DNA from: Octopus sinensis
Lineage: Eukaryota
NCBI RefSeq assembly: GCF_006345805.1
Contig: NC_043018.1
Location: 26,908,001-26,972,000 of the forward strand
Reading direction: 5' to 3'
Length of the DNA: 64,000 bases
Program-made: the position numbers and the translations under genes
In this document: in pieces, positions 33,006 through 57,271 of the stretch
Layout of the letters: each line of letters begins with the position of its first letter
Numbering within the stretch: position 1 is the first letter of the stretch
Notes under the pieces: generated by a model
Seen by the model: the letters and a program-made list of their open reading frames with translations, nothing else
What the model was told of the DNA's origin: nothing
The model's database searches: none

Positions 33006-33102
<97 letters not shown>

Positions 33103-33142: not shown

Positions 33143-33536
33143 TCTTTATATATAAAAGTGAAGTTGTGTGTCTGTCTCCTACGATTTAGATTCCTAACTA
33201 CTCCCTCATTTTGCGGTGCAGTGTAACCAAAAGCGGGTATCTTATAGTCGTGATTCATATCGAGCCTTCTGGGTATTAGCGCACGTCTACGATGAGTTTA
33301 CGATTAAAAAAAAAAATTACCATAATTTTTTCCGCATTTTTAATGCCTTTTCGCTCGGTTATATAAGGGAAGTAACTCTCTAAAAATGTATTATTAATCT
33401 CAGAATGTAAAAATCTACAGTAACACTCCCCCTTTGTGGTTAGCCATATTGAGATGGCTATTATACTTTACATCTCTAAAAATGCTTATATAGTTATTTC
33501 CCTTACAACCCGAGCAACGCCGGGCGACACTGCTAG
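33143..33536 (+). mobile_element. Non-autonomous Helitron, same family as 28410-28807
   Basis: A|TC start, same body, cccgagcaacgccggg hairpin, CTAG end. Confidence 0.85.
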
Positions 33537-34238
33537 ATATATATATATATATATATATACTCTTTTATTCTTTTATTTGTTACAGTCATTTGACTTTGGC
33601 CATGCTGAGCACTGCCTTTAGTCGAGCAAATCGACTCTAGGGATTATTCTTTGTAAGCCTAGTACTTATTCTATCGGTCTGTTTTGCCACACACACACAC
33701 ATACATATACACACACACACTACATATATACACATACGCACACACACTCACACACGTATACACACATACATCTTGTTGATTCTTGGGAGCGTCATTATGC
33801 CAATAACGATATGGTTACACATCTGACAACTTCGTAATCGATCGTTTGTTTGGTTAAACAATCAAGTTTATTTCTTTCGTAAAGTCCGTGAAGTCCGTTC
33901 GCTATTTTTCGCGACCTTTTCAATAGCTGGTCCTTTCTCTTCAACGTCTGCCCTGAAATTTGGCCGCGAATTAATCTTATGTCTGCGTGCATGCATGCCT
34001 TTCTATGTGTGTGTAGATGTGTGTTTGCTTAGAAGAATAAGGGTGAGAGGAAAGGAGATTATGTGCGTGCGTGCGAGTGTGTATGTGTGGTGTGTGCGTG
34101 CGTATGTGTGTGGGTTGTGTACACTCGTGTGACTACTTGCATGTGTATGTGTACGTGTGTGTTAGTGTGTGTAGCCATCCATGACTAGGTATGTGTATGT
34201 ATAACTGTGTCTAATACGCACATAGATTTATATGCAAG

Positions 34239-34465
34239 AGGCGGCGAGCTGGCAGAAGCGTTAGCACGCCGGGCGAAATGCTTAGCAGTATTTCGTCTAC
34301 GTTCTGAGTTCAAATTCCGCCGAGGTTGACTTTGCCTTTCATCCTCTCGGGGTCGATAAATAAAGTACCAGTTTCGCACTGGGTCGATGTAATCGACTTA
34401 ATCCGTTTGTCTGTCCTTGTTTGTTCCCTCTATGTTTAGCCCCTTGTGGGTAGCAAAAGAAATAT
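34239..34465 (+). mobile_element. SINE family 1, full length
   Basis: ggcggcgagctggcag head to gccccttgtgggtagcaaaagaaata tail. Confidence 0.88.
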
Positions 34466-34680
34466 ATATCATGTATATATGTGAATAGAAGCAGGCGTGA
34501 CTGAGCGGGTGTTTCTACTATAGCCCTGGGTCGACTAAACCCTTGTGAGTAGATTTGATTGACGGAATCTGAAAAAGCTTGTCATATATGTGTTTATCAA
34601 TATTTAGCAGAAGCAACAGAGTGACTCGGGGGGCGAGAGTTTCGTTCATTGACACTTGTCAAACTACACACAGACACACA

Positions 34681-34730
<50 letters not shown>

Positions 34731-35109
34731 ACACATACATATGCATGAGTGGCTGTGTGTAAGTAGCCTGCTTACCACTACATGTTTCTGGGTTCAGCCC
34801 CATTACGCGACGCCTTGGTCTTCTACTAGAGCCTCAGGCCAACCAAAGCCTTGTGCGTGAATTTGGTAGACGGAAACTGTGTGTGTGTTTGTGTTTGTGC
34901 CCCCGATGGTGGCAAGTATATACATAATATTATTGTTCTTTCTTGCGAATATATAGAATTACTTTAAAGAAGTGTTCGGGTCGAAACAAGTAAAAGAATA
35001 AAAGAAAGAAATGAAAGAATATATATATATAATATATATATGTACATTTTTACTTTTATATACATATTTATATTTATTGCATATCTTTTACTTTTATATT
35101 TATATATAA

Positions 35110-36375
35110 CTAGCAGAGATACCCGGCGTTACCCGATTACATTCAATTGGAGAATTAGACTTTTCTGTTATATCTTCTGTGATGAACTGGAATATCTATG
35201 TTTCGAATTTCATCAAAATTGCAGATGAGGGTTATTTCAATCTTTACACACCCTAAAAAATTGTAATCGTGCCACATGTATCCCATAATCCTGATTTTTA
35301 TGCGCATATTCCAAAATTCCAGTCTTATTTAACTTGTTAAAAAGATTTTGTTCCTGAAAAATGAAGGTCATGGAGCTCTAAAATGTGAGAGTTAAGGCTC
35401 CTGTTGGGGGTAGGCATCTTAATGTCAACCAGAGAAGTTGAATTGTTGAAAATCTTTTTAACTTGGGTCTTATATCTATTGTTTGAATTTCTTTGAAATA
35501 GGAAATATATGTTCACTGGGTTTGTAAAAGAGAGCAAAGCTACAGAAACCAAACGAATGAATCACAATAAGCAGTCAGTTACCCTACCCTAGTCGTTACC
35601 ACTCCTAATGTAGGATTCCTCACCATCCAGGTGACAGGCACAGCCGTAAGATGCATTACAAATCTATAGCAATTGGAAGGGTAATCTATAGCAACTGTTT
35701 GACGTGAGAGCTAAGGAGAAATGAAAGTGTCACCTCTGTAGTTTGCAAATGACCACTATACTGATACGTAACTGGACAGAATAAATTTAAAATCTATAAA
35801 TGTCTTCGAATAACCAGTCACTCATCTGGGAAGGCCTTGAAATCAATGTTACCATCTGGGGACTATGTGTGACCGAGTGATAATAAAAGACTGAAACGAG
35901 GTCTGCAATCAAATAAATTTTACTCTACACTTTGCAACTGAATCAGTGGAGGCAAAGATGCCTCTCATTTACTTGACAATTTATGCAGTGTGTATGTCAA
36001 AGCAAACTTACACTGTTGTACCATTGAATTACAATAATGCTCATCTTTTATGCTCGGGTACCCTACAGCTTCCAAGAGCACAACTGTATTCATTTTTGCT
36101 TAGATAAAATGACAAATTGTAGTTGTTAAGTCCCCATGGAGGGGTCTTTCTAACTTTGTAAGATGAAATTTATAGAATATTACTTCATTTGTGTCTAATG
36201 TCTATGGTTAAAATTTCATCAACAGCAAAAATATATGAATTGTCATGGGTGTTATGGCCCTTATGCATAGAATATAATTTCCAAATTTCATAAAGATCCA
36301 TTCAGTACTTTTGACCAAGTTTTGATCATAAAAGAAATTACTAAAATTTGGATTTAAGGCTCCCATTAGGGTGTT
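35110..36375 (-). mobile_element. Probable decayed non-autonomous Helitron
   Basis: Left end actagcagagatacccggcgttacccg is a reversed hairpin plus CTAG end; right boundary uncertain. Confidence 0.45.
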
Positions 36376-36400
36376 ATATATATATATATATATTTATATA

Positions 36401-36460
<60 letters not shown>

Positions 36461-36745
36461 ACACACATGCACACATACAAAGATAAATTGATAGATACAA
36501 CTGAGTGAGCAAACAAAAATATGAGACACAGCCTAGTGCTTTTTTATGTTGATAAGCCTAGTACTTACTCTATTAGTTTGTTCTTGTGAAACCAGTAAGT
36601 TATGTGGATGTAAATAAGTGAACAGCAGTTGTGAAGCAGTGATGAGGGCGAAACACAGAGACAAAGACACACACATACACTTACATATATATATACATAT
36701 AATACGATTTATTTGTTACAGTTCCTGTCTACGAAATCCTATATA

Positions 36746-39447
36746 TTGTTGTTGGCATCATTTTTGTCTCGGGAGACAATGGAGTTGCGCATAAAATAAT
36801 CTTGTCCGGCTTTTACATTTCATGTCCTAATACATCTCTTGCTGTGGCTGTGTAGTCCTAGCCGGGACAAACACTCCCTCTGGCAGGTGCCGTAAATGTA
36901 GCGAAGACTTTGCCTGACTGGTTGTAATGTCATAGTTTCTTGTTGACGTCTTTTCTTGTCTTCCATTTCTCCTTTCTCACTATGTCACTCCTTTGTGTTC
37001 CCTCTTTCACGGTACGCGTCGCCAATCTCCACGGTTGCTGGCAACTGCTTCCCAGTTGTAATATTGATGTTGCAGGCATTCATGTCCCTTTTGCAAACAT
37101 CCTTGTATCGTAAGAACGGTCTTCCCACAGACCTAGTGTGCCCTAGCAAGCTCTCCGTTGAGTATGTCCTTGGGGATTCTGCCATCTTCCATACGGCTAA
37201 CATGTCCAAGCCATCTCATACGTCTTTGTGTGAAGAGTGCAAACATGCTTGGTATTCCTGCTTGCTTGAGGACATCTTTGTTAGGGACATGATTCTGCCA
37301 TTTGATGCGATGGATTTTCCGGAGACAGCGCAGGTGAAAGATATTTAGGCGACGTATGGCGTCGTATGGCGTGTGTATGGCGTCAAAGTCATACAGTAGA
37401 GTGCTAGTACACATGCCTGGTAATCTTCATTTTTGTGGTCTTGGTCAGCTTATTGTTGTCCCATGCGCGTTTGGTGAGTGGGCCATCACAGCAGCTGCCT
37501 TGCCAATGCGTATATTGAGCTCAGCATCAAGGGATAGGTTGTAGGTGACGGTAGAGCCAAGATAGGTAAACTTCTCCACCTCCTATACTCTGTGGTATCC
37601 AATATGTATGTTTGGGATGTCCGATGTAGCCTGACCCATGATGTTGGTCTTCTTGAGGCTGATAACTAAGCCAAAGTTGCCAAATGCTTGCTCAAAACAG
37701 TTGCTGTGCCTTCGTAGGGCTTCTGTGTGTGATACCAGAGCGGCATCATCAGCAAATAGCATCTCCTTGATCAGGATGCTTCTGAAATTTTGGTCTTGGC
37801 ACGCAGACGCGAGAGATTGAACAGTTCCCCATCACTTCTACTGTGCAGAAACACTCCATCATCTGATGTCTCAAAGGCATGTGACAGCAGCAGCGAGAAG
37901 AAGATGCCAAATAATGTAGGAGCAAGGACACAACCTTGCTCTACCCATTTTTATTTGGAAGGCGGCTGATGTTGAACCATTGTGCTGTATGGTGCCTTGC
38001 ATATTAGCATGGAATGATTTGATGATCCTCAGCAGCTTTGGTGGACATCCGATTTTTTGGAGCAGGATGAAGAGGCCTTTTCTACTTACCAGTCAAAGCC
38101 CTTTGTCAGATCAATGAAGGCCATATATAATGGCATGTTCTGCTCTCTGGACTTCTGAAGTTGGCGTATGGAGAATATCATGTCAATTGTTGATCTGCTT
38201 CTAAAGCCACACTGCGATTCTGGATAAATTCGAGAAGCAATTAGTTGTCAGCCTGGACAGGATAATGCAAGCAGAGGCCTTTCCAACTGTGCTTAGAAGA
38301 GATATTCCACGGTAATTGTTACAATCATCACGGTCACTTTTATTTTTGTAAAGCGTAATGATGTTAGCATCCCGCATATTCTGAGGGACTGTACCCTCTT
38401 ACCTGCACTGACACAGAAGCTCATGAATGTGCCGAAGCAGGATGGTGTTTTTGCCGGTTTTGATGATCTCTAAGGGGATGCCGTCTTTTCCCGGAGCCTT
38501 GTTACTACTTGCTAGGAGTCAATAGATTTGGTGAGCTCTGCTATAGATGGCAGACTGTCAAGTTCACACATGACTGGCAAGATCTTGACACCCTCGATTG
38601 CAGCCTCAGCTACCGTGGTCTCTCGTGAGTAGAGATCCTGGTAGTACTCCATCCATCTATCCATTGCTTGCTTTGGTCCCTGATGAGATCTCCAGTAGTT
38701 GATTTCAGAGGGGCTGAGGTATTTGCGGATGGACCGAGGGCCTTCAAAACCGGCATACATCCCACGGGTGTCGCCACTGTCAGCAGCTGACTGGATACTC
38801 TGACAGATTTCCTTTCAATACCCATTTGCATAGCGTCTGGCAGTCAGTTGGGTTTTATTTCTTGCCTTTCTGAGTTCTTCGTGTGACTTTGTAGAAGAAC
38901 CACTCTTGTATTGCATCAGAGCTGTACGCTTTGCTTCGATAACTGGTTCCAGCTCTGAGAGCCCAGCACTGAACAAAATCTGGGTTTTACCTTTCTCTCA
39001 TCTCATTCCGAAGTATCTATTGATGTGGTATACAAAGCTTCCCTGATATAATTCCACCTACTTTCAGCAGAGGAGGTTGGGCAGCTACTGAGGGCAACCT
39101 TGATAAAAAAAACCAAAACATTGTCGCAGTGTAGGGTTCGAGGTTCTGGCAGTGTTAATGCGTGGTTGGCTAATTTTCTTGGAGTGATGGACTTTTTAGG
39201 CAGAATCCTCCCCTTCTTATTAGTGAATGATCTGTCTCACAATCCGCGCTACGGGTCAGTTGAACAGAATTCAGAAGGATCTTCGTGTAATGATGAGATC
39301 CAACTGATGCCAGTGGTGAGATCTTGGATGTCTCCAAGATGCCTTGTGGGATGTCTTGTTGGGAAAGAATGTGTTGGTGATGCACAGGTTATGGTATGTG
39401 CAAAATTCAAGTAGTCTCTGGCTATTGTCATTCATGTTGCCAATACT
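36746..39447 (-). pseudogene. RTE-clade LINE, 5'-truncated and frameshifted (APE end plus reverse transcriptase)
   Basis: ITNTFFPNKTSHKASWRHPRSHHWHQLDLI, NYRGISLL, LFADD, RLNIFHLRCLRKI, RRMRWLGHVSRMEDGRIPK; short (CAA) tail. Confidence 0.9.
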
Positions 39448-39551
39448 AAAACACATACACTTACATATATACAACATATATATACGATTGATTTCTTTCA
39501 GTTCCTGTCCACGAAATCCATATATATATAATATATAATATATATATATAT

Positions 39552-39604
<53 letters not shown>

Positions 39605-39719
39605 TATATACATACATATATATATGTATGTACACACACACACACACAAAGATAAATTGATAGATACAACTGAGTGGGCAAACAAAAATGTGAGACACTG
39701 CGTAGAGCTTTTTTAAATT

Positions 39720-39847
39720 TTGATAAGCCTGGTACTTATTCTATCAGTTTCTCTTCTTGAAACCAGTATGTTATGGGGATGTAAATAAACGAACACCCAG
39801 TTGTGAAGCAGTGATGAGGGAGAAACACAAAGACACATACACAGACT

Positions 39848-39879
<32 letters not shown>

Positions 39880-40010
39880 CGATTGATTTCTTTCAGTTTC
39901 TGTCTACAAAATCCACTGACAAGGCTTTGGTTGGTCTCAGGCTATAGTAGAAGACACATGCCAAGTTACCACACAGTGGGACTGAACTGAGAACCATGCG
40001 TTTTGGAACC
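39720..40010 (-). mobile_element. Decayed SINE family 2
   Basis: aaatccactgacaaggctttgg...tatagtagaagacac block. Confidence 0.7.
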
Positions 40011-40428
40011 ATAAGAATACTTATGCATAAATCTAAAATCTTAAATAATTTCTTTGTTATTGTAGTATATATCAGTAAAAAATGGAATATTCCCAAAATT
40101 GCATGATTAACTAAATGATTTCCATTTCTTATTTAAACGTGAAAATCTTGAAAAAAAAAATCAGATATATGGATGTGATATAATGACACTTATTCATTTT
40201 TGAACACCGGTCTGAAATCAATTTTTTGCGTGTATAGTAAGTTATTATATTGTGTATATTTTCTCCATTGTGATCTACTGTTGTCTAGCTGTCTGTCTGT
40301 GTTGTTGTAAAACTGTTGAAGTCGGCCTTCGTGCGAGGGCTTCGTGTTGGTGTTTTCCCCCTCCGTGGGGGAAAGAGCTATCATTATCTTGGGTGTGCCA
40401 AGGGCTTGTTAAAAGCCAGTTATCAGAG

Positions 40429-41743
40429 ATGGAATCCCCTATCTCGAATTCAAGTGATGCAGGATCACCGGCGGTGTCGCCAAAGAAAAAAGGGGCGGGG
40501 TCGCCAAAGGAAAAAGACATTCTAGCACCAGCGAGAAAATTTTCTGAAGTAGCTGGGAAGAAAATTAAAAAAATCAACGTGGACAACCTGGGAAAACATG
40601 CGGACTGTGTGTCGAAAGAGGGCACGGAAGTAACCGTAGCTTCAAACGCCCAAATACAGGAGGAAATTTCGAATAGGAGAATAATCTATAAGACATTCAG
40701 TATAACAAGCAGAGCAATACAAAAAATAGAGGAGAAAAAGATCGAAAACTGCTTAAAGCCGATTATGGATAAAATAACATATATCAATCGAGGGAAGAAA
40801 TTCGGCACAGTGGAGGTGAGATTCACGTCAGAGGAGGTAGCAAAGAAGCTATCAATGGAACCCATAAAAGCAGAGGATATTGTTCTCCTACCCCTGTATA
40901 AAGGCAAGAGAACTTCCAAGATCACAATGAATAACATTCCGCCAGAAGCGGATGCCGAAGTCCTGGTGGCAGCAGTTATGGTAGGCCTGGAGGAAAAAAT
41001 AAACATCCTCCAGGCCACCGTAGAAGAAGAAGAATTCTGGAAAGGGCAAAAAATAATAATAGCCATACAAGCAGAAGTACAAACCCTGGAAGAGATCCCA
41101 GAGACTCTAAAGATAAGCGAAGATGAAAGAGTCACAGTCTTCGTAGAAGGCAGAAAGCCGAGGTGCTTCGGCTGCGGTAAGAAAGGGCATGTAAGGGCAG
41201 AATGCCAGCCCCAACCCAAACCGCAGGAAGCAGCTCAGCCAAGTGGAAAAGAAGAAGCCGTGTCGTCAGAAACAGCGCTGGTCGGCCCAGGAGGGACGAC
41301 CGAAGGTGTGGAGGTGACAAAGGCAGCGGAACCAACGGAGGAAGAAAAAAAGAGCGAGGAAACGAAAAAGGAGGAGGGGTGGTCAAAAATCACCAGGAAA
41401 AAAAGAAAAACTGAAACCACCCCTCCCAAAGTAAACCAAAAAAAAAAAGGGAGTCATTGAACTCATTTATGGCCGTTAAGGCCACGAACAATAGACTTGG
41501 AAATGTGTTGGCAGCGATGGCCAAAGTAGAAAAATAGGGAAGAAAAACGATTATGTTTTGTACAGAATAGGCCGAAAGGATACGGACGGATAAAGTCCGA
41601 ATTTTTCCATGACGTAGGCCCGCTCAGAATGGATATAACATCTCCATATATATTCGAGGGCCTGCGTCAGACTCCCCCACGAGGCCCAGAAAAAGAGAAG
41701 GAAGAAGAAGAAAAAAACCGAACCACTGATATAAAGGTAAGTA
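40429..41743 (+). CDS. Tx1-A ORF1 (zinc-knuckle nucleic-acid-binding protein); frameshifted after ~41450
   Basis: CFGCGKKGHVRAEC knuckle; likely ATG at 40429; frame break in an A-run. Confidence 0.8.
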
Positions 41744-44700
41744 ATGGATTTTTATGTTGGTTGTTTAAATGTGCGCGGCCTGGGAGCAGGCTGGAAGCAA
41801 GGTCGCTTCCTGCATGATATCAGGTCGCGTAATTTAGATGTCATTGTTGCTACAGAAACCCGGTTAGAGGGGCCAAGAGGTCTACTCCCGCTGTTTGACG
41901 GCTACGAGAGTTTTTTCTCTCCTGGCAGTCCTACAGGCGGGAGTGGGGTGTTGGTCCTACTAAAAAGAAACCGGGTTTCTGGGAAAAAGTTAATTTTTGC
42001 AGATCCAGAAGGTAGGCTGGTCGTCATGGATTTGACGTTCAGTAACGGTAAAGTTATCAGACTGGTTGCAATTTACGCACCCAACAGTACAGGGCAAAGT
42101 GATTATTTTCGTGAACTAGAAAACTTTCTTGGTACTTCGCATTCATTAGTGGTGCTAGGAGACTTTAACACAATTTGCAAAGCGGATGTAGATTGTGTTG
42201 GCTCGCGTCCAGATAGGAAAGGTAACAGTGGCTTCATGGAACTGCTAAGCCGCTTTGAGCTAGCAGATCCTTACAGGCTGGAATTTCCGAACGCTCCATT
42301 GTGGACATGGTCAAACAGCGACGGATCTTCCAGGTCATATTTAGATAGAATACTAATTAGAAAAGTAGACAGTAAAATAGCTAAGTGTCCACAGTTTTAC
42401 CCGATCAGCTACAGTGATCATAAAATGGTCACTTGTAAGCTTGACATAGATAAGGTTAAAAATAGAGGATCCGGTTACTGGAAACTTAATACGTCCCTTT
42501 TGGCGATTAAGGAGTACAAAGACCGGATTAGGAATATAATTCAGAGGGCACTATCTGGTACCATCATTAATACAAATGGTGGTACGCCCTCAAACGAGCC
42601 ATCAAGTTTGAGTCTATTAGATATAGCATAGGAGTAGTGGCTAGAGAGGCTAGAGGGAAACTACTCTAGTTAAGGAATTAGAGGAAGCCATGAAAACTGG
42701 CTCTGCGGCTCAGGTGGCGGCCAAGAGACTGGTGTTAAACCAGCACCTCGAGGCCAAACACATGGGCTGCATTGTCAGGGCTAGAATCCGTCATATGGGA
42801 TGTGAAGGAATCAACGCCGTGAGATGGGCCCGAGTGGTGGAAGCTCAGCATGGTAACGATGCCACGATTCGATCTTTGACGAACCAACAAGGTGAGTTGA
42901 TAAACGAACCCGAGGAGATGTGTGAGGCCTTTCAGGAGCACTTCGCTCAGCTTTTCGGTGAGTGCGGCGGGCTGGATAGGAGGAGGGCCTTTACGGACCT
43001 ACTCGACGGTCTACCGCGCTTATCGGGGCGAGATGCGGAGGGCTGTGAAGGGCCAATCACGCCTGGGGAGGTGGTTGAGGCAATGGCGGACTGCGGCGCG
43101 GGCAAGGCGCCGGTTTGGATGGTCTACCCTATGAGTTATATAAGAGTATGCCAGACTTGTTCGGGCACCTACTGGCGGAGGTCTACGCGAACTGGCAGCA
43201 GAACGGGCTTATACCCAGATCTGTGCGCCGGGGAGTAGTGACTCTCGTCAGAAAGGACCCGAGCAAGGGGGAGTGCATTGATAATTTCAGGCCCATCACT
43301 CTGCTAAACACAGAGCTGAAGATTTTGGCCAAAGTGTTATCGAAAAGATTGGCGCGTGTCGCGGATGGTCTGATCGGAGGGGCACAGACATGTGCCGTTC
43401 CGGGCAGATCCATTCAGGATAATCTCCATCTAATGCGGTACACTATAGAGGGGTTTTAATAGTGATTCTGGCAAGGGTGGGGCTCTGGTCCATTTAGACC
43501 AATCTAAAGCTTTTGATAGGGTCGACCATCGTTACCTGGTATCTGCCCTGGCACAGTTCGGGCTGAGCCTTGGCTTCCTCAGGTGGATTATCCAAATTTA
43601 CGATAACATCGACTCGGTAGTTCGGGTGAACGGCTTCTTGTCGAAGCCGTTCAAAATCAAACGCTCGGTTCGTCAAGGGTGTCCGCTCTCCCCGCTTTTG
43701 TACGTAATGGCTCTTGAGCCATTACTGCGAAAACTGAGCGGCATCCCGAGACAGCCAGGTAACGGAAAATCAGTGTCAGCGTACGCGGATGACATCACCA
43801 TCATCGTAACCGAAATGGACCACCTATGTAAAGTAGGCAAGGCCATAGAGGTTTACGAGACGGTGACAGGAGCAAAAGTAATCGCGAAAAGTCAGTCGGC
43901 TTGCAACTCGGCACCTGGAGAGGCAAGTCGATGCCTCCTGACAGCGTCGTGGGACGTTGGACGGAGGGTCCGATTAAACTGCTAGGGGTCTGGTTCGGTC
44001 CAGACCTCCAAATAGAGAAGAATTGGGGCGAGGTAACGAGCAAGGTGGCTGCAGTAGCCAAGACCTGGTCTTGCGGTGGCTATCCCTGAAGGGAGGGCGG
44101 AGGTGGCCAATGTGTTCATCGCATCGGTTATCACCTACCGCCTTTCCGTCGTTCCTTGCCCTGATTCGTGGTTGATCAAGTTGGAAAGACAGCTCTTCTA
44201 CTTCTTGTGGAAGGGCGGGAAACCACTTGTGAAACGCTCTACTTGCTGTCAACAACCGTTAAAGGGTGGGCTAGGGATGCCTTGGCTGATGATGCGCAGA
44301 CATGCGCTGAGGTTAAGACATCTGTGGCTCTACCTGGATGGTGAACGGGTGTGGTCTTCGCTAGCAAAACTGATGTTTCCCAAGTTCACTAGTTTTCGGT
44401 GGCTGGGAAACCTGGCTGAATCGTAGATCGAAACTGGGTACTTGGTACACGGAGTGTCGCAAGGCTCTCCTGCTGTTCCGTCGCTCGGGCAACGCCTGCG
44501 GTGGGGGTTCCACCACACTCTCTATAGAGGGTTGGTAGAGGCGGAATGTGAAGATACCTTGGGGGAAACCCTGGGTCTCGACGATAATCAGCTGGCCAGT
44601 CTGTTCCGACGTACGTTCGAGCCGAGGACACTGGACAACTTCCAGAAGTCTTTGGCATGGCAATGCTACAGAGGAGCTCTACCTGTTCGGGATAAACTCG

Positions 44701-45131
44701 CAAGGCACGGTGGCCAAGACAGTCCGATATGTCCAAGATGCGGGCGGGATAGGGAAACCGTCCCGCACGCTATTGTTCATTGTCCGGACGTGTCTGAGGT
44801 GTGGGTTTATGCCGAACAGCTGTTGTCAGGTACACGAAGAGTACAGCTGTCGACTGAGTCGATTACAAAAATTGACCCACCGGATTTCCTCGTGAATGAA
44901 GGTAAGTTTCGTTTTCTCGTTGTAGTAGCAATTGCGAAAGAAGTGATATGGAAGACGAGAATGAAAGGTTTACAGTCAGGCAAGTTCATCTCCGGCCCTG
45001 GTTTGATGAATTACTTCATCTTTCACCTGAAAAGGAAGATAGGGCTGGAGAGAATATGCCTGACTAGGAGAGTGTATGAAGAACGATGGAAGGATGTAGC
45101 ACGAAAGTTGCGAATGAAAGTCACAACATAA
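41744..45131 (+). CDS. Tx1-A ORF2: APE endonuclease, reverse transcriptase, C-terminal Cys/His motif; several frameshifts
   Basis: LNVRGL, TET, GDFN, SYLDRI, SDH, GYWKLN; FRPITLLN, QGCPLSP, AYADD; CPRC...HAIVHC. Confidence 0.9.
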
Positions 45132-45543
45132 ATGTAATACCAAGTGCAACCAAAAGTATCAGTGGGGAGGCGGGGCTCGTGGGGTCCGAGCTGAACCCGC
45201 ACCCACTCCATCTGTAATGTCTTCCGGTCTATTACATCATCCGATTTTGTGTGTATTTTTGTAATTTCATGATATTTTTAAAACCGTTTTTGTGTAAAAA
45301 CCATCCGTATGTCTGACCCCAAATAAGATTGTTTTGTCCCCTCTATGTTCGCCCCTTGTGGGTAATAATAAAATCACTTATTCATTTTTGACGAGAATGT
45401 TTTATCCCGCCTGGTCGGCACCTATATAAAGTCACTGTTGCTACTAAAAAGAAAAAAAAAAAAAATGTAAGTTGGTTTTTTTTTCGTTAGTCAAATTTAT
45501 TTGACCAATTTCAGTGAAGACGCTGAGGAGGGGTAGGCCAATA

Positions 45544-46885
45544 ATGGCCAGCCCGAAGGCGGACAGAGCGGAGGTCCAAACCCAGGTCCTTAGTCCAGAG
45601 ATGTCCAACCTGGAAGGAATAATGGCTATACCCGACATTTTCTCGGACGAGGAGGAAAGTGGGAGAGTCAGAAAGAGTATAGATGTGCCAAGCATGGCAA
45701 GGAAGGTGCTAAACTTCGCCGAGGCAGCTAGTCCGAAGGAAAGAAGGATTAACCTAACCAGGGTGGAAGAAGCGAAGAAGATAGTGTCTCGAGACGGGTA
45801 CAAGATTAAACTAAACCAGATGAAAGAATCTCTCGAAGAGATAGAGAAGAGAACGGTAATATTCAAAACATACTGTAACATAGAAAGGAAAATAGACTTT
45901 TCGTCGGAAAAGAAGTGGAGGCGTGCCTACTACCCATCTGGGATAAAATCACATTTTTTAACCAGGGGTAAGAGGTACGGAACTGTGGAAACTAGGTTCA
46001 AGACAGAAGAAGAAGCGAGGGAACATTCAATGAAGCCCCTAAAAACAGGCAATAACAACCCTTCTACCTATCTATAGAGGAAGGCGTATTTCAAAAATTA
46101 CGGTTGCCAACATACCGCCGGAGATCGAGCCCGAACTGATAGTGGCTGGGGTCACTGCAGGACTGGAAGACCAAATGGAAGTGCGTGATGCCACGGTGGT
46201 AGAAGCCAAAAAGTGGCATGGACAGAAAGTACAAATTATTGTACAGGCAGAGCAGGTCGCCTTGGAAGAGATAGGCGAGGTCATCGAAATAGGAGAGAGC
46301 CGGATGGCAGTAATGGTGGAAGGCCGGAAGCCCAGGTTTTCACCTGTGGCAAGAAGGGCCACATCAAAAAGGACTGTAAGCCGGCGGAGAGGAAAAGAGC
46401 GTACCCACAAAACCAAGTGCTCAAGTGGCGGCTACAGAAACGACAGCCGCAACAGAAGTAGGGGAGGGGTGTCACAGGTTGCTGCGACAAAACGAAAGCA
46501 CAACACCCCCTCCCCGGAGAAAATTATAAGCAAAGAGAAGAGAGAAGAAGAAGAAAAAGCGAGAGAAGAAGCGAGAGGGGAGAACAGGGTGTATGTGGCG
46601 ATGAATACCGCAAACAGAGAAGTGGTACGCAGAGTGGAGACTCAACACGTCGAGGAGGTGGAGATGGAAGCGAAAGGTGGAGGCTGGAGATGCTACGTGA
46701 TGGGACTGAAGGGGTTCAACACGTATGCAAACGACTTTAGAAAAGACGTAGGCACACCCAGAATGAGCAAGGAGGATGCCCTGAAGGATGCAGAAAGAAA
46801 GAACAACAACGCGCCGAGTCCACGTTCATCTGAGGCAGAAGAGACGGGTCCCCCCCGCCGGTCGGACCCAGAGGAAATAAGGTAG
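45544..46885 (+). CDS. Tx1-B ORF1, frameshifted
   Basis: RTVIFKTY, RGKRYGTVE, VEGRKPR, TCGKKGHIKKDC align with A ORF1. Confidence 0.75.
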
Positions 46886-46892
46886 GCAAACT

Positions 46893-49800
46893 ATGGCTGT
46901 TTACGTTGGTTGCATAAATGTGCGCGTCCTGGTAGCGAACTGGAAACAAGGTCGTTTTCTAAACGATATCAGGGCGCGGAACTTAAATGTAATTGTCGCT
47001 ACTGAGACACGAATCGAAGGGCCAAGAGATCTACTCCCGCTCATGGAAGGCTACGAGAAATTTATTTCTCCTGGACGGCATGTGGGCGGGAGTGGGGTGT
47101 TGGTTCTGCTTAAAAAATAGTGTCGCAGAGAAAAAGTTGATTTTTTCTGATTCAGAAGGTAGGCTGGTCGTCTTAGATCTAACGTTCAGTTGTGGTAAAG
47201 AAATCAGGCTGGTGGCGGTGTATGCACCTAATACGGGTCAGACTGATTTTTATCGAGGCTTGGAGAAGTTTCTTGGCACGTCAAAATCCATAGTCATGTT
47301 AGGGGACTTTAATGCCATAGTCGACGCGCGCGTCGATGGCATTGGCTCGAAAGATAGGAAACCAAACGCTGGCTTCCGGATCTACTGAGTCACTTTCAGC
47401 TGGTAGATCCCTACAGACTTGAATTCCCGAACGCTCCACAGTGGACGTGGTTAAGTGGCGACGGGTCTATCGGGTCTTACATAGACAGAATTTTTATTAG
47501 AAAAATAGATAAAGGATTAGTTAAGTGTCCACAGTTTCACACGGTCAGTTACAGCGATCACAGGATGGTCACTGGCGAACTGAACCTAGATAAGTTAGGT
47601 AGTAGGGGATCCGGCTACTGGAAACTCAATAAGTCCCTCCTGGCTATTGAGGAGTACAGAAAGCGGATCGAGTTAGTAGTGAAGAGGGCGTTAACCGGTT
47701 CCATTATTAACAACAAATGGTGGTACGCCCTCAAAAGAGCCATAAAATACGAGTCCGTTAGATACAGCATAGGTCTAAACTAGCGGGCGTAAGAAAGAGA
47801 TGGGGCTAGTTAAGGCCTTAGAGGAAGCCATGAGAGCTGGCGATGGGGCCCAGGTTAGGCTGAAGAGACTGGAGTTGAACCAGCACCTCGAAGCCCAACA
47901 TATGGGTTGTATCGTCAGAGCTAGAATTCGCGCAATGGGGTGCGAGGGTATCAAGGCTGCCGGATGGGCACGAGTTGTGGAGGCTCAACGTGGAAACGAT
48001 TCCACAATTAAGTCTGTGACGAATGGGCGAGGTGATGTGATCACCGAACCAGAGGAGATGTGTCGGACGTTTCAGGAGCACTTCGCTCGGCTCTTTGGGG
48101 CGACGGCGGACCGGAGGAGAGGGTGGACCTAACGGACATCCTCGCCGGGCTGCCGCGCCTCTCGGGGCAGGATGCGGAGAGCTGTGAAGCGTCGATCTCG
48201 CCTGAGGAGATAGCTGAGGTCCTGGCCGACTGCGGTGAAGGCAAGGCGCCGGGGATCGATGGTTTACCTTACGAAATATATAAAAGAATGCCAGACTTGT
48301 TCGGGAACGTGCTGGCCGGCGTTTTCACGAACTGGCGGCAGAATGGGTTCATTCCCAGATCTGTACGTCGGGGAGTGGTGACGCTGATCAGAAAGGACCC
48401 GAGCAAGGGAGATAACATAGACAATTTTCGGCCCATCACACTGCTAAACACAGAGGTGAAGATTTTGGCCAAGGTGTTAGCGAAAAGGTTGACGCGTGTC
48501 GCGGGTGGTCTGATCGGGAAGGCACAAACTTGTGCGGTCCCAGGAAGAACCATCCAGGACAATCTTCACCTAGTACGCTACACAATAGAGAGGTTTGGGA
48601 ATGACTCTGGCAAGGGTGGGGCATTGGTCCATTTAGACCAGAGTAAAGCGTTTGATAGGGTGAACCATCGGTACCTGGTGTCCGTGCTGGCGCAGTTCGG
48701 TCTGGGCATTGGCTTCCTCAGGTGGATCATACAATTGTACGATAACATCGACTCGATCGTTCGGGTGAATGGCTTCCTCTCGAGGCCGTTCCGCATCAAA
48801 CAGTCTGTTCGTCAAGGGTGTCCGCTCTCCCCGATTTTGTATGTGATGGCTCTTGAGCCATTGCTGCGAAAGCTGAGCGCCATCCCGATGAATCCAGGAG
48901 GTGGAGGATCTGTGACATCGTATGCGGACGACATCACCATCATCGTGACCGAGGTGGAACTCCTACGTAATGTGGGAGATGCCATCAAGGCTTACGAGAC
49001 GGTGACAGGAGCAAAGATTAACCGGAAAAATCGGTCGGCTTGCAACTCGGCACCTGGAGGGGCAAGTCGATGCCTTCGAATAGCATCGTGGGATGCTGGA
49101 CGGAGGGCCCGGTTAAGCTGCTAGGGATCTGGTTTGGTCCAGGTCTCCAGATAGAAAAGAACTGGTCTGAGGTGTCGGGCAAGGTGGCTCACGCGGTCGG
49201 GACTTGGTCCGGACGGTGGCTGTCCTTGAAAGGGAGGGCGGAGGTGGCCATGTGTTTTTAGCATCGGTCATCACCTACCGCCTGACCGTCGTTCCTTGTC
49301 CGGATTCGTGGTTGAGCAAGTTGGAGAGACAGATCTTCCACTTTTTGTGGAAGGGAAGTGCTCCTCTTGTAAGACGTTCTATCTGCTGTCAGAAACCGTT
49401 AAAGGGTGGCTTGGGGATGCCTTGGCTGATGATGCGCAGAGATGCGCTGAGGTTAAGGCACCTTTGGCTCTACCTGGATGGTGAACGGGTGTGGTCCCCG
49501 CTTGCGAAGCAGATGTTCCCCAGCTTTGCCAGTTTCGGTGGCAGAGAAACCTGGTTTCGTCGCAGACTTAGATCGAGCATGTGGTATTCGGAGTGCCATA
49601 AGGCACTCTGCCACTTCCGCAAGTCGGGCAATGCCGGCGGCTTTGGTACCACCGCAGCTTTTTATAGCAGGTTGGTAGAGGCCGGAAATGACGATGCCTT
49701 AGGAAGGACCTTGGGCCTCGATAGAAATCAGTTGGACAGCCTGTTCCGAAGGACGTTCGGGCCGAAGACATTGGATAACTTCCAGAAGTCTTTGACCTGG

Positions 49801-50271
49801 CAATGTTTCAGAGGAGCTTTACCCGTTCGGGATAAACTCACAAGGCATGGTTGGAGTGGACCATCGAACTGCCCAAGATGCGAGCGGGATCTGGAAACAG
49901 TCTCGCACGCTATTGTTCAGTGTCCGAAAGTCTCGGACGTGTGGGTATATGCCGAACACCTGTTGTCGGACGGAAGAAGAGTACAGCTATCGGCTGAGAC
50001 AATTATAAAAATTGACTCGCCTAGCTTTTTGACAAGTGAAGGTAAGCATTGCTTTCTCAGTACAGTAGCAGTAGCGAAAGAGTGTATATGGAAGACCAGA
50101 ATGAAAGCGGTAACGACAGGCACCGTGATCTCTGGCTCCGCCTTGGTGACCTATTTCAGGTTCCACCTAAAAAGAAAGGTGGAGTTGGAGAAGAGGTGTC
50201 TGTCTGCGTGTGAGTTCGATAAAATATGGAAGCGTGTGGCACGGTTGCTGCGAGTGAGAGGAGCCACGTAA
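46893..50271 (+). CDS. Tx1-B ORF2: APE, RT, Cys motif; frameshifted
   Basis: INVR, GDFN, GYWKLN, PGIDGLPYE, FRPITLLN, DQSKAFDRV, QGCPLSP, SYADD, CPRC...HAIVQC. Confidence 0.9.
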
Positions 50272-50742
50272 ACATGCTGTAGGTTGGCTGCCGAGTTTCG
50301 GTGGGAATAGCAGGGCTCGTGGGGTCGGCAATCCTGGTGTTCCCGCTTCATGTGTTACCTTTATGTTGTGTTGTTGTTGTATATCATTTGATTTATCCGA
50401 TTTTTCGTAATTTAAAAAAAAAAAAAAAAAATGTTCATTTTTTCTGTAAATACCATCTGTGTCTCATGACCCCAAATCATGATGTATTGTCCCATTCTTC
50501 GTTGGCCCCTTGTGGGTAATAAAGAAATCATAGACACTCAACAACTGAATACTTATCATAAAAGTGCCTTACTGCTTTCTGCTGGATTTTACCTCGAGAA
50601 AGGAACCCTGAGGAAGGAGGGCTGAATTTCGAATACCTCGTACAACAAACGGCTGCAGGTTAGGAAAAAAAATTTAATCGCCTCTTTCAATTCAGGTTTT
50701 CATTTTTCATGTTTTTATTTGTATTTCATTGTTATGTTTATA

Positions 50743-51225
50743 TTGGGTTGTCCGGAAAGTTCGTTCCGATTTTTAAAGGAAAGTACATGGTCACTAAATA
50801 CTCTTCCCAGAATTGGGGTGGTTTCAAGGCAAATAATTCATCAAGGTATCTTTTTACGTCATCTAAGGAATTGAAATTTTCACCATTAAGACTATTCTGC
50901 AGAGACCTGAATAAGTGGAAATCCGAAGGAGTAATATCTGGTGAATATGGAGGGTGGGGTAAGTCACCCCAGCCAAGCTGCAGCAATTTTTGTCTGGTTC
51001 CCAAAGCATCAAATGCTGATAATGAATTTTTCTCATCTTTTAATTTAAAGGTTTACAGAATTAACACAGGTTATTGGAACATAAACCTTCTTCCACGAAA
51101 AGATAGATTAAACTGTGCTCCAAATGGAGGTGTAGTCAAATCCTATTTTATGGACTCAAACATGTTCTAAAATAAGTCGAAAGATAAGCTACGATAAATC
51201 TGCAAGAACTTTCCGGACAACCCAA
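50743..51225 (-). mobile_element. Internally deleted mariner element
   Basis: TIR ttgggttgtccggaaagttc / gaactttccggacaacccaa; TA TSD; HPPYSPDITPSDFHLFRSL remnant. Confidence 0.9.
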
Positions 51226-51625
51226 TATTTCTATATTTTTATCATGAAATTTTTAATATAAATATGTGGATATTCGTATGGAATAATACCTCATGTGCTA
51301 CATCTGAATTTTCTTGTCTGAATGTTTTAAGACAAATATCCGAAATTTTTATCGTATACCACATTTTATTAATACTTAGCTCATATACGGAGACAAAAAT
51401 GTTGTACTATATACTGCAGGTTATCTCCATTAAAATTATATTTAGCATTAGAATTCTTCAAGTAGTATAAAAATGGTTATTGTCTGCATCATTCGAAAGC
51501 GAAATAAATTTTGCATAAGGTGTAAAAGATAAAAAATAATTTGTATGGTGTTAGTAACAAAATATTTTGTAAGAAATAGGACTTTTATCGTCTGTCTTAA
51601 ATATATTTTCGCCAGTGTATATATC

Positions 51626-54165
51626 TCAGGTCATCCCATAAGTTCTGTCTGAATTTTGGATAAAGAATACAAGTGATCAAATGTTATATTTAATTGAAAG
51701 TTAATCATCAATGTACTTTCCCTAATTATCTATGACTTACCTCCATCTATTTACAAGCTTTTTAATCCCATCAACGTAAAACTCTTTTGGTTTGAAAGCG
51801 AAGAACTCTGAAATGTCAGGTTCGACCTCCCCCTGGCTTGCGAAAGTTGTATCCCCCTACTAATTCTGTAAACTATGAAACAAATGGTATCCTGAAGGAG
51901 TAAGGTCGAGAGAATAAGTTGGATGAAGAAATTTTTCCAAACCGACCCCTTCGATCTTCTGTGATGTGATCTTTGCAGTGTGGGGTTGCGCATTGTCCTG
52001 ATGAAACATCACTCGTTTTCGACTCACTAAAGCGGCTCTTTTTTCCTTCAAAGCTTGGTTCAAACGCTCTAATTGCTGACAGTAGACTTGAGCATTGATT
52101 GTTGCATTAGGTGGTAACAATATAAAGTGAATTACGCCTTTGCAATCGCACCAGATAGAGAGTAGAACCTTTTTCCCATGAAGTTCCCTTCTCGGTTGTG
52201 GTTGAGAATTTTCCCTTTTACCAAGCCACTGTTTACGACATCTAACATTTCGATAGAAAATCCATTTTTCATCACAAGTCTATCGAAAAAGGGTGAAATG
52301 AGTTTGCGAGAATGGAGAGAAGAGCAGATGCCAACTCGGGATTTGCGGTTGCTTTCGGACAATACATAAGGCACCTATTTTCCAAGTTTAGGAACCTTTC
52401 CACGTTGTTGAAGATGACGATGAACTGCTGTATGGTTTGAAGTAAGCTTTATTGTCAATTCTTCAACTGATAATGACGGATTTTCTTCAAGTAATGCCTC
52501 AAGGAGCTTGTCAAACTCAACTGGACATCCTGTTCGATATTCATCTTCAATTTTGCAGACGATCTCCTGCAAGTTCTTTCATTCGAGCACTTTGCTATAA
52601 ACTGAGTGTATGTTTCGAGTCACTTCGGCATCAGTTACCTTTATTGTACTCATAAAGAATTATATGTGCCTTAAATGCTCCTTGGATACTTCCATGTTGA
52701 AAGGGTTTTAATCAGAGCAATTTTAGGGTGTCCACGAAGTCTGGGTTTATGGAATAAAATCATAACATAAGAAATAATAATTTTCCTTTTTTACTTTTGT
52801 TTAAATTAAATAAAAAAAACTTTACTTTTCTAATTTATTTGTTATTTTTTCTACAGATGATCGAATGATGGCTCTGTCTAAAGAAGAAAGAATCCCAGAT
52901 CGAATGATGAATCTGTCTAAAGAAGAAAGAATCGAGTTAGTATTATTAAGTGGACGAGAGGGATGGTCTTATCGCAAAATTGCGGAAGAATTTAATCTTC
53001 CACACCTTGTAGGCAACCTATTTATTTTACTGCCGTCAGGAAATTGATCAAGAAATTTAAAGAAACAGGCAGTGTTTCGGATAAACCCCGTTCCGGGCGA
53101 CCAAAGACTTCAGATGAAACTAAAGAGGCTGTCGAGGCTAAAGTTTCTGCTAGCTAGCCCCCCAAAATCACTTCGTCGGACATCTACGGTGTTAGGTGTT
53201 CCAAAACCAACCATCCACAAAATGCTGGTTGAGGAAAAGTTTCATCGATACAACCTACAGATATTGCATCACTTAAATTAAGACGATCCTGATAGATGAA
53301 TAAATTGGATGAAAATATCAATTTTACGAAAAACTTTGTGTTGTTCAGTGACAAAGCTACGTTTTATGTAAATGGTAAGGTCAACAGACAGAATCTTCTA
53401 TACTGGTCTCGAGGTAATCCACATTGGATGGATCTATCCAAACAGCAAGACAGCAAAAAGTGATGGTGTGGTGTGGTTTTTGGAAAGCTCATGTTCTAGG
53501 ACCCTTCTTCATTGAACATGTAACGGATGAGACTTATGAAATATATTGAGAGACAAATTAATATCTTAAATTGAGCGCCTAGGCGAGGACCTTCCAAATT
53601 GGTTTCAGCAGGATGAGGCCCCTACCCATTTGCCACAACTGTTAGAGATTGATTTAATGACACTTTTCCTCCTCACAAGATTGGAAGAAGGGGTCATATG
53701 GAATGGTCCCCTCGTTCACCAGACCTTTCTCCCCTTGATTTCTTTTTCTGGGGTATGTTGAAAGAGAAAGTTTACTCAATAAAGATTACAGATTTAAAAC
53801 ACACGAGAGAACGCATTACCAGTCAGTGTGCTTAAATTGATGGCAATATAGACTTATTTAATCAAGTTCACCTGAATTTTGCAAGGCGCATCAAGTTATG
53901 CATTGAAAATGATAGAAATCACTTTGAAAATATTATTTATTATAATTAAATAAAATTGTTTTGTTTTAAAAGTATGTGTTAATTCCCATGTACGCAGACT
54001 TTGTGGACACCGTCTATTATTTTGTAAAACAATATTGAATTAGTTTAAACGTACACAAATGCATAAAAATAATTTTTAATTGAATTAGACATTTGCAAAT
54101 ACTATTAAATTTCATTCAACTCTAAAAAGCAGGTAAAATTGGACAGAACTGACTGGATGACTTGA
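51626..54165 (-). mobile_element. Decayed mariner element with nested DD41D element
   Basis: TIRs tcaggtcatcccataagttctgtc / gacagaactgactggatgacttga; FHQDNAQPHTA, HPTYSLDLTPSGYHLF; transposase relic ~51720-52695. Confidence 0.85.
52725..54013 (+). mobile_element. Tc1/mariner DD41D (rosa-type) element with pseudogenised transposase
   Basis: TIR agggtgtccacgaagtctg / cagactttgtggacaccgt; KFKETGSV, FSD, FQQDEAP...WSPRSPDLSPLDFFFWG with about 41 residues between the last two D after correcting one frameshift. Confidence 0.8.
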
Positions 54166-54858
54166 TATATATAATCTATGATATTCTAGTAAGTTTCAAG
54201 TTTATAACACCTTGATATCTCATTTTATATGCCTAAGACGTTTATTTTCTATTCTGGTTTTTATATATTTCTATACATTATATTTGTATCTATAATTTAT
54301 TTTAAGCCGAAACATAATACGATCCTTGTACGAACGAAAGAACAAGAATGTCCTCTGGAACGTTTATCTTCCACCGGCGTTTGTAATCGATGGTGACATG
54401 TGCGATGATTTTGCGACTATCTTATATTTTACAGAGAAACTGGAAGCCCCGAATGTAAGTCAGCGCTTTATGCATAATTCAATATTCATAGTTCTCTATT
54501 TCTAACAGAAATTCTGTCCTCAATAACTATAGATCTATTTCTAAATGTATTTCTTTTTCTTTTCCTTCATGCACTCCCGTCTGCCTCTTGACAAAGCTTT
54601 CTTTCTCCAGCGTTCACCACGTCATCTCGTTAGGGTTAACCAGCCCTTAGCGAAAATTTTGACTGTCCTGATTTTGTTAGCAGCTTTGACGTTCCACGTA
54701 TCTCAAATTTTATCTAATTTGGTTTGGGGGAGCAATTGCTTTGACGAAGACACTTTTTGTTGCAATGCGGAGCAAGTAAAATTGCCAACATCTGAGGAAG
54801 AGTTGTTTGTTATTTTTATATTCTGCCTTCACGCTATAGTTCTCTATGTAACTAAGAT

Positions 54859-55717
54859 AGCCAAGCCAAGCCAAGCCAAGCCAAGCCAGCCTAGCCAAGC
54901 CAAGCCAAGCCAAGCCAAGCCAAGCCAAGCCAAGCCAAGCCAAGCCAAGCCAAGCCAAGCCAAGCCAAGCCAGCAAGCCAAGCCAGCCAAGCCAAGCCAA
55001 GCCAAGCCAAGCCAAGCCAAGCAGCCAAGCCAAGCCAAGCCAAGCCAAGCCAAGCCAAGCCAAGCCAAGCCAGCCAAGCCAAGCCAAGCCAAGCCAAGCC
55101 AAGCCAAGCCAAGCCAAGCCAAGCCAAGCCAAGCCAGCCAAGCCAAGCCAGCCAAGCCAAGCCAAGCCAAGCCAAGCCAAGCCAAGCCAAGCCAAGCCAA
55201 GCAAGCCAAGCCAAGCCAAGCCAGCCAAGCCAAGCCAGCCAGCCAAGCCAAGCCAAGCCAGCCAAGCCAAGCCAAGCCAAGCCAAGCCAAGCCAAGCCAA
55301 GCCAAGCCAGCCAAGCCAAGCCACCAAGCCAAGCCAAGCCAAGCCAAGCCAAGCCAAGCCAAGCCAAGCCAAGCCAAGCCAAGCCAAGCCAAGCCAAGCC
55401 AAGCCAAAAGCCAAGCCAAGCCAAGCCAAGCCAAGCCAAGCCAAGCCAAGCCAAGCCAAGCCAAGCCAAGCCAAGCCAAGCCAAGCCAAGCCAAGCCAAG
55501 CCAACCAAGCCAAGCCAAGCCAAGCCAGCCAAGCCAACCAAGCCAAGCCAAGCCAAGCCAAGCCAAGCCAAGCCAAGCCAAGCCAAGCAAGCCAAGCCAA
55601 GCCAAGCCAAGCCAAGCCAAGCAAGCCAAGCCAAGCCAAGCCAAGCCAGCCAAGCCAAGCCAAGCCAAGCCACCAAGCCAAGCCAAGCCAAGCCAAGCCA
55701 AGCCAAGCCAAGCCAAA
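54859..55717. repeat. (AGCCA)n / (TTGGC)n pentanucleotide satellite
   Basis: Direct reading; source of AKPSQ/LAWLG ORFs. Confidence 0.97.
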
Positions 55718-55741
55718 GTACCGCCAAGCGCTCTGGCGCCA

Positions 55742-56750
55742 AGCGCTCACTGTTGACTCGTAAGCGGACAGTGAGCCAATGGCGCCCAGAGCGAGCTCTG
55801 GTCGCCATAGCGCTCACTGTTGACTCGTAGCCGCGACAGTGAGCCCAATGGCGCCCAGAGCGAGCTCTGGTCGCCATAGCGCTCACTGTTGACTCGTAGC
55901 CGCGGACATGAGCCCAATGGCGCCCAGAGCGAGCCTGGTCGCCAAGCGCTCACTGTTGACCGTAGCCGCGGACAGTGAGCCAATGGCGCCCAAGCCAGCT
56001 CTGGCCCATAGCGCTCACTGTTGACTCGTAGCCGCGGACAGTGAGCCCAATGGCGCCCAGAGCGAGCTCTGTCGCCATAGCGCTCACTGTTGACTCGTAG
56101 CCGCGGACAGTGAGCCCAATGGCGCCCAGAGCGAGCTCTGGTCGCCATAGCGCTCACTGTTGACTCGTAGCCGCGGACTGAGCCCAATGGCGCCCGAGCG
56201 AGCTCTGGTCGCCATGCGCTCACTGTTTACTCGTAGCCGCGGACAGTGAGCCCAATGGCGCCCAGAGCGAGCTCTGGTCGCCATAGCGCTCACTGTTTAC
56301 TCGTAGCCGCGGACAGTGAGCCCAATGGCGCCCATAGCGACTCTGGTCGCCATAGCGCTCACTGTTGACTCGTAGCCGCGGACAGTGAGCCCAATGGCGC
56401 CCAGAGCGAGCTCTGGTCGCCATAGCGCTCACTGTTGACTCGTAGCCGCGGACAGTGAGCCCAATGGCGCCCAGCGAGCTCTGTCGCCATAGCGCTCACT
56501 GTTGACATCGTAGCCGCGTACATTGAGCCCAATGGCGCCCATAGCGAGCTCTGGTCGCCATAAAGCTCACTGTTATCGTAGCCGCGGACAGTGAGCCCAA
56601 TGGCGCCCAGAGCGAGCTCTGGTCCGCCATAGCGCTCACTGTTGACTCGTAGCCGCGGACAGTGAGCCCAATGGCGCCCAGAGCGAGCTCTGGTCGCCAT
56701 AGCGCTCACTGTTGACTCGTAGCCGCGGACAGTGAGCCCAGGCGCCCAGA
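55742..56750. repeat. GC-rich 70-bp tandem repeat, about 14-15 copies, two hairpins per unit
   Basis: Unit cgctcactgttgactcgtagccgcggacagtgagcccaatggcgcccagagcgagctctggtcgccatag (56081-56150). Confidence 0.95.
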
Positions 56751-56759
56751 GTCCTGCTC

Positions 56760-56937
56760 CTGACACTATTGTCCGTGGACCCTAAGCAAGACGTGTGTAA
56801 AATTGAATGAAATTGGTTGTGTAGTTATAGGGATTCAAGTTATAGGGATCACACACACAGACAGATACACATTCTTAGTTTCTATATATCAGATATACTA
56901 GCATTATGACCCGGTCGTTGCCGGTCATAGTGCTAGT
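56760..56937 (-). mobile_element. Helitron-like 5' end (at 56893) next to a CTAG-bounded hairpin (56897-56937)
   Basis: Minus strand A|TCtgatatatagaaactaagaatgtgtatctgtctgtgtg resembles the 28410 Helitron start; hairpin actagcattatgacc..ggtcatagtgctagt. Confidence 0.5.
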
Positions 56938-57271
56938 CCATGTATATAGGAGTATAATATGTGTTCAAATTACATGTACACATATATATACATATATATA
57001 TTATATATATACATTTACACATAAAATACAAAACAATGTTATATCTTGATATCGCTAGTGATAACAATACTCAAAATATAAACAGACTGAATTGTAGCCC
57101 GTATTGCAATTTCGACCAATTGTATTTTGTCCTCCCTCTAGTGTAGAAGTGTGGCTACATCCATACCTCTACTTCTGCGGGATTCTTTCATAGTGCGCAA
57201 AGACACTTTTCGATGGTGCTTTCCTCCGGTGTTCAAATCTTCTTTTTTTCTCTATTGTATGCTTATAGACG

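Follow-up and report, generated by a model that had tools for sequence, protein, structure and literature searches.

Head-to-tail Tx1-like retrotransposons in Octopus sinensis and their probable insertion at start sites behind TATA-like boxes

How do two different retrotransposons come to stand head to tail, each preceded by the same 17 bases? The question is raised by a 64,000-nt window of the Octopus sinensis genome (NCBI RefSeq assembly GCF_006345805.1, contig NC_043018.1, positions 26,908,001 to 26,972,000 of the forward strand; coordinates below are those of the window), in which two near-full-length long interspersed nuclear elements (LINEs), A and B, follow one another directly. The best explanation, to which we give a probability of roughly 0.6, is that A and B occupy one hotspot and are separated by the target-site duplication (TSD) of A, and that their family inserts where RNA polymerase II (Pol II) starts transcription, some 30 bases downstream of TATA boxes, and draws on the promoters of the host for its own transcription. 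Within this reading we infer the start sites themselves, the borrowing of promoters, the growth of arrays from the promoter side and the positioning by TATA-binding protein (TBP) or the pre-initiation complex. The parts of the locus are as follows (UTR, untranslated region; ORF, open reading frame; APE, the endonuclease domain; RT, reverse transcriptase).

40130..40137, plus strand: TATA-like octamer of the host hotspot T1, one mismatch to TATAWAWR, found in 10 of 11 empty copies, the eleventh being a variant
40161..40166, plus strand: initiator-like bases in the sequence, with a predicted host start near 40163 (TATA+34)
40187..40203, plus strand: left copy of the 17-mer, the TSD of A, from the window sequence and comparison of copies
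40204..45374, plus strand: element A, with a 5' UTR, ORF1 and ORF2, and a 3' tail without poly(A)
40429-41460, plus strand: ORF1 of A, open, 343 aa, with a weak zinc knuckle
41744-45131, plus strand: ORF2 of A, frameshifted, with APE, RT and zf-RVT
45375..45391, plus strand: right copy of the 17-mer, 11 bases of host site and the first bases of B, from comparison of loci L032-L034
45392..50528, plus strand: element B, with a 3' tail of A's type
45544-46885, plus strand: ORF1 of B, frameshifted
46893-50271, plus strand: ORF2 of B, frameshifted
50529..50760, plus strand: downstream half of the host hotspot, with a family tail directly upstream in 18 of 29 classified top-scoring copies

The 17-mer is found exactly at both positions in a search of the window (shuffled sequence is expected to give 0.58 matches with up to three mismatches allowed), and the tail of A ends at 45374 and abuts the second copy without a spacer, as the initial annotation of this DNA had described; the word is not present at the 3' flank of B. 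Seven other A tails (at least 96.9% identity, six loci) are all followed by CACT, with mostly unrelated DNA beyond, and solo A-subfamily sites with both ends known have a TSD of 17-20 bp starting with CACT or ACT in four of five cases, none being found at L310. Since these solo TSDs measure 17-20 bp and those of the whole lineage cluster at 16-18 bp (24 of 40), the 17-mer is the TSD of A, and not, as had been offered as an alternative, a conserved 5' terminus of both elements. Its first 11 bases are the host site of empty copies and its last six are the first bases of B in other B copies, from which it follows that A inserted after B, just ahead of it; these six bases are ambiguous, owing to microhomology with the host-derived bases, or 5' tag, with which A itself begins. 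Rfam gave no matches in the window, which excludes a snRNA or tRNA gene as the target at this locus.

A 9-mer had also been reported behind a related tail, and it is there, at 1611, next to a relative for which an upstream TSD copy was looked for and not found.

716..1610, plus strand: decayed ORF1-only relative, broken by a short interspersed nuclear element (SINE), with the 9-mer after its tail at 1611, from sequence comparison

The 9-mer is a host target sequence that some elements bear as a 5' tag, and no conserved terminus. If the 9- to 17-mer were instead the elements' own initiator or conserved 5' end, the lineage would be targeting the start motif of its relatives; the 17-mer does also stand ahead of two other heads, that of a B on C9 and that of an ORF1-only element on C3, and many insertions do hit the first bases of relatives. 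However, most full-length heads lack the motif and bear other tags, the 9-mer is present in empty host copies without any element, and solo insertions have unrelated flanks. This rule is largely refuted, very improbable as an explanation of the lineage, and survives only as a consequence of the tags. The chance that a misassembly joined two separate elements is negligible: the assembly has many small indels and, among the contigs of public runs listed, none spans the junction at 45375, but a perfect TSD flanks A, both halves of the junction recur on other chromosomes and tail-to-head joints also occur in contigs of two public runs (X1, X17).

The lineage forms mixed head-to-tail arrays genome-wide, in which 5-kb two-ORF elements stand together with shorter ORF1-only ones, far above chance, as the initial annotation had supposed. 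The 30 best tails per query were counted, with members of one array entering separately, and a relative's head lay within 120 nt downstream in 8/30 for A, 3/30 for B, 25/30 for C and 10/30 for D, or 46 of the 120 top-scoring tails; conversely, a tail lay upstream of 20/30 A-like and 11/25 B-like heads. A rough chance bound, from an assumed 5000 heads (an inferred copy number) of 120 nt each, comes to 0.02% of the genome. The set of heads was extended by seven types taken from these loci, six of them confirmed by ORF1 matches, and the L028 class, which has no ORF1 match, was removed from the head count. By the rule that a Tx1 family is target-specific when more than 20% of its flanks are of one repeat type (PMC4494074), both A and C qualify among their top matches, with 8/30 A tails in host T1 and 8/30 at relatives' heads, and 25/30 C tails at heads. 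One array on C3 reads A-C-C-D-D-B-truncated A over 18 kb, and one more tail pattern has 202 matching places, many spaced 1.7-1.9 kb. At L327 a tandem pair shares an identical truncation, which means that some tandems come from duplication and not from re-insertion. C, D, G and H are ORF1-only elements of 1.65-2.0 kb with the A/B-type 3' tail and TSDs of their own; an ORF1-only partner has an ORF1 related to A's (36% identity over 210 aa) and no ORF2. We take these partners to resemble HAL1-like non-autonomous LINEs.

What the insertion sites have in common was read from their TSDs. From 118 array or solo starts, 45 sites with a TSD were obtained, and seven more from pairing of head and tail loci; the resulting 52 sites fell into 38 host clusters, or 37 after two were merged by eye, each entered by one representative. 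A TATA box has the consensus TATAWAWR and lies some 30 nt ahead of the start, and a site was scored when a match with at most one mismatch began 28-33 nt ahead of the TSD. Such a box is present in 14/37 clusters (background 5.5%), in 13/25 independent sites of the B/D/H branch (background 5.8%; binomial p 2e-10) and in 12/33 single-member clusters (p 1.5e-7), and a permutation that took the best of any window gave p 2e-4, which is the floor of its 5000 rounds. The exact TATAAA occurs in 6/25 B/D/H sites versus 1/25 for its reverse complement, and the TSD starts of this branch show no strong base preference. Among 5'-truncated copies the box is found at the same spacing in 7/15, and favoured expression cannot explain this, as truncated copies cannot benefit from it; in SINE insertions, taken as a control, it is found in 1/11. 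The earlier proposal of start-site targeting holds in so far as start-site-like positions are involved, but the stronger signal is the fixed distance to an upstream TATA-like box in host DNA. Motif targeting, proposed alongside it, stands for the subfamily of A, which prefers a CACTT-type motif, while other subfamilies show other short motifs or none.

The 5' tags begin at a similar place. D copies in host T4 start with bases identical to those of host T5 from TATA+33, a solo C starts with T2 bases from TATA+36, and a D copy on C9 has as its first 23 bases those of the window's own host site from TATA+35; the A of this locus starts, by eye, like T2 from TATA+30. Transcription out of a host promoter would yield tags of this kind.

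The main rival to tethering by TBP is direct readout, in which ORF2p would itself read a bendable A/T-rich box about 30 nt upstream together with a short nick motif, with neither a transcription factor nor an active promoter. It accounts equally well for the fixed spacing and for the truncated copies, in the major host T2, a decayed ORF1 coding region, the only TATA is a cryptic one, and the offsets differ from branch to branch. We nevertheless consider it unlikely, given that the spacing matches the textbook TATA-to-start distance, that the tags share this offset, a sign of transcription there, that exact TATAAA is oriented, and that some hosts show, by eye, extra promoter-like motifs (CCAAT in T3, an initiator-like start in L229). 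Ordinary short-motif Tx1 behaviour, with a motif of 4-6 bases per subfamily, double insertions at TSDs, unequal exchange and spread by a giant transposon, suits the subfamily of A and the junction at 45375. The identically truncated tandem at L327 implies the duplication it calls for, and double insertion is known for R1, jockey and SINEU-3 (PMC5932611, PMC4494074; these and the other comparison papers, save the 2026 repeat annotation below, are cited from extracts of their text). It is quite unlikely as the whole account, however, as it predicts neither the -28..-33 peak in single-member clusters nor tags from TATA+30-36.

Several observations weigh against the promoter explanation. The sites were drawn from top-scoring matches and are not a random sample, and both the scoring window and the split into branches were picked after inspection of the data. 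With one mismatch allowed, the reverse strand matches in 9/25 sites, a high number because TATA boxes are near-palindromic. The trait of a fixed distance to a core promoter element, as in Ty3, is present in B/D/H and absent in A/C/G, where only 1/12 sites have the box at -33..-28 and a weaker peak lies about 6 nt farther, at -38..-33 (5/12, p 0.04). None of five CACTT-type sites has the TATA spacing, and 12/25 B/D/H sites, the heavily used host T4 included, have no TATA-like box there. At this locus the TSD of A lies 57 nt behind the box at 40130, the site having been lengthened by earlier events. Some of the hotspot copies counted as occupied may have spread by hitch-hiking with the DNA transposon around them. 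Copy trees do not separate a single insertion of A and B on C22 and C3, carried along with the host, from independent insertions: there are 20 differences over 2409 columns, like unrelated copies, and the host flanks are about equally diverged. Finally, the tags could have arisen by template switching, the named alternative for the 5' extensions of SINEU (PMC4494074).

If insertion at promoters is nonetheless correct, the ribonucleoprotein would be placed by TBP or the pre-initiation complex, or by the DNA opened there, and would nick near +1, with a short subfamily-specific motif picking the exact base. Transcription of the element would start in host DNA, a few bases before the element itself, and each generation would thereby keep a piece of its old site. 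Since the promoter and the left TSD would outlast the insertion, the next element would land ahead of the last, and some arrays may then have been lengthened by unequal exchange between TSDs. In the window, B came first, and A followed in front of it at a CACTT motif, with the first bases of B copied into its TSD.

Other hosts and relatives show features of their own. Hotspot T2 (L326, L069, L058), where the TATA box is cryptic, is a relative's ORF1 that has decayed and itself lies in a multicopy context, and L409 is another insertion into a relative's ORF1. Host T3 (L035-L037, L204, L207, L208), also multicopy, has E2F-like motifs, CCAAT and TATA boxes in order, followed by short repeats. Behind F/H-type tails (L378, L380, L424, L054, L410-L415, L422-L423) the next bases resemble, by eye, the head of the common tRNA-type SINE about 13 nt from its start, which suggests a subfamily aimed near an RNA polymerase III (Pol III) start. 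An abundant SINE (window 1059-1296, minus strand, and other copies) has its last ~40 bases in common with these LINEs and is a likely partner; insertions of this tail-sharing SINE have TA-rich TSDs and no TATA spacing (1/11). When splice donors were searched for downstream of the sites, no clear pattern emerged, and the donor-like bases visible by eye near 50660 were not picked up.

The repeat that holds the array begins sharply at 27230 and ends about 20 kb past the window, with the following parts.

27222..27229, strand not assigned: left 8-bp TSD of the host DNA transposon, whose right end, past the window, is followed by an identical copy
27230..64000, strand not assigned: giant non-autonomous DNA transposon with terminal inverted repeats (TIRs) and Merlin-like ends, containing the array and extending to window-equivalent 84418, ~57 kb

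Further copies on C3 (~62 kb, G000:C3:1163747-1225803) and C8 (~38 kb, ~37.19-37.23 Mb) each have their own 8-bp TSD, and the 40 best left ends are 98-100% identical. The Merlin superfamily is described with 5'-GG termini, TSDs of 8 bp (8-9 bp) and TIRs of 24-462 bp (PMC8101967). The host shares the GG ends, the 8-bp TSD, whose bases differ between the three copies, and a TIR length within this range (~270 bp on C8), but it is 38-62 kb long, unusually large for the superfamily, and no transposase was seen among its ORFs; the genome has 150 matches to PF12762, for IS1595-type transposases, and ten transposase loci were compared and two had the host TIR word nearby. Among 30 top copies of hotspot T1, 18 are occupied, 11 empty and one unclassified. 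The empty copies keep the TATA-like box and diverge from about TATA+25-30 on, with 70-128 nt to a fixed anchor, and look as if repeatedly cut and repaired. From chromosome to chromosome, members of the host family take along a nested cargo of SINEs, mariners, LINEs, a helicase fragment and satellites. In the window the host holds a Tc1/mariner-like element whose TIRs and decayed transposase frame were read by eye (~52727-54015), a 5-bp satellite and then ~15 copies of a 69-bp GC-rich unit, self-complementary by eye (54859-56751), and after these a 29-bp satellite up to the window end, parts of which are common to other host copies.

A and B are likely members of the Tx1 clade, judging from their sequences. 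They are different subfamilies, as had been claimed, alignable only from the ORF2 start onward (ORF2 and tail) and there 76% alike. PF03372 matches A, and PF00078 and PF13966 match both. Traits of the L1/Tx1 group are present: an ORF1 and an ORF2 with APE endonuclease, RT and a C-terminal zinc motif, variable-length TSDs, 5' truncations and intact 3' ends. The closest relatives of solved structure are L1 ORF2p. Among named RT relatives an Argonauta protein comes nearest (57%), and most look-alikes of ORF1 are zinc-knuckle proteins of molluscs or arthropods. The RT scores 197 bits (40% identity) to a protein named 'transposon TX1 149 kDa' versus 120 bits to human L1 ORF2p. The original Tx1 label is plausible; in an RT tree built without L1 or curated Tx1 references, B groups with the Argonauta protein and unnamed relatives, apart from the TX1-named row. 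Contigs of public runs carry single-base indels relative to the assembly at 42571, 43454, 43878, 44072, 44088 and 49023, several at ORF2 breaks, which means either that these breaks are absent from other copies or that the assembly contains indel errors.

Much of this has precedent. Tx1 within DNA transposons in TSD-separated tandems, double insertion, targeting of Pol III starts and mixed HeT-A/TART arrays are already known. Tx1 of Xenopus (in Tx1D) and the crocodilian Tx1-Mar/SINEU are likewise APE-RT LINEs concentrated at a DNA-transposon site, with tandem copies that sandwich a TSD and 5' extensions for which transcription of flanking DNA has been suggested; their target, however, is one repeat family (PMC4494074), whereas here many unrelated hosts have in common only a TATA-like box at a fixed distance, and the arrays mix two-ORF and ORF1-only elements. 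Yeast Ty3 (PMC6673722) and dictyostelid DGLT-A (PMC5006619) also insert within a few bases of a start site, by way of a TBP-containing factor. These are elements with long terminal repeats and an integrase, acting at Pol III genes with tethering established by experiment (PMC6673722, PMC5006619), while ours is a LINE at predicted Pol II core promoters with putative tethering. Dictyostelium TRE5/TRE3 are APE-RT LINEs with position-specific insertion whose ORF1 binds TFIIIB subunits in vitro, but their sites lie ~50 bp upstream or 100 bp downstream of tRNA genes and not at a TATA-linked start (PMC5006619).

In Drosophila, HeT-A/TART/TAHRE similarly form same-direction arrays of ORF1-only and two-ORF elements with the promoter upstream of the transcribed copy; theirs are added at chromosome ends with the promoter in the neighbour's 3' UTR, whereas those described here are interstitial and TSD-flanked, with the promoter predicted in host DNA (PMC5537684). 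A telomeric HeT-A/TART-type identity is ruled out, the arrays being internal and flanked by TSDs. Tandems of R1, jockey and the P element likewise arise by double insertion at a TSD and then unequal exchange, P dimers lying near start sites (PMC5932611), and Zepp clusters arise by nesting of Zepp in itself (PMC3446292); the extracts of these two papers report no base-precise TATA spacing. In octopus, L1-Tx1 and Merlin families with recent activity are listed by a repeat annotation of 2026, whose main text does not contain 'target' or 'nested' (PMC13282606). A LINE with TATA-linked insertion was not found in the literature searched, with Repbase reports, supplements and subscription papers outside its scope, so that a prior description may exist; a metagenome scan for loci of relatives found none.

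Tentatively, and at somewhat less than even odds, the lineage may amount to a promoter-parasitic LINE guild: APE retrotransposons that insert at +1 of TATA promoters by way of a tether to the Pol II pre-initiation complex, without a sufficient promoter of their own, with 5' tags as a record of the promoters used, HeT-A/TART-like queues in which ORF1-only partners perhaps supply the targeting, and a Merlin-like mobile landing pad. The paradigm of base-precise start-site targeting comes from Pol III systems (Ty3, TRE5). A LINE that does this at Pol II TATA promoters, if true, would add a new rule of targeting to target-primed reverse transcription and would account for the expression of LINEs that lack a conserved 5' end. 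It would also lead one to expect that host promoters of this genome are directly disrupted or captured, and would give a handle on which protein reads the promoter, with the insertions marking germ-line start sites.

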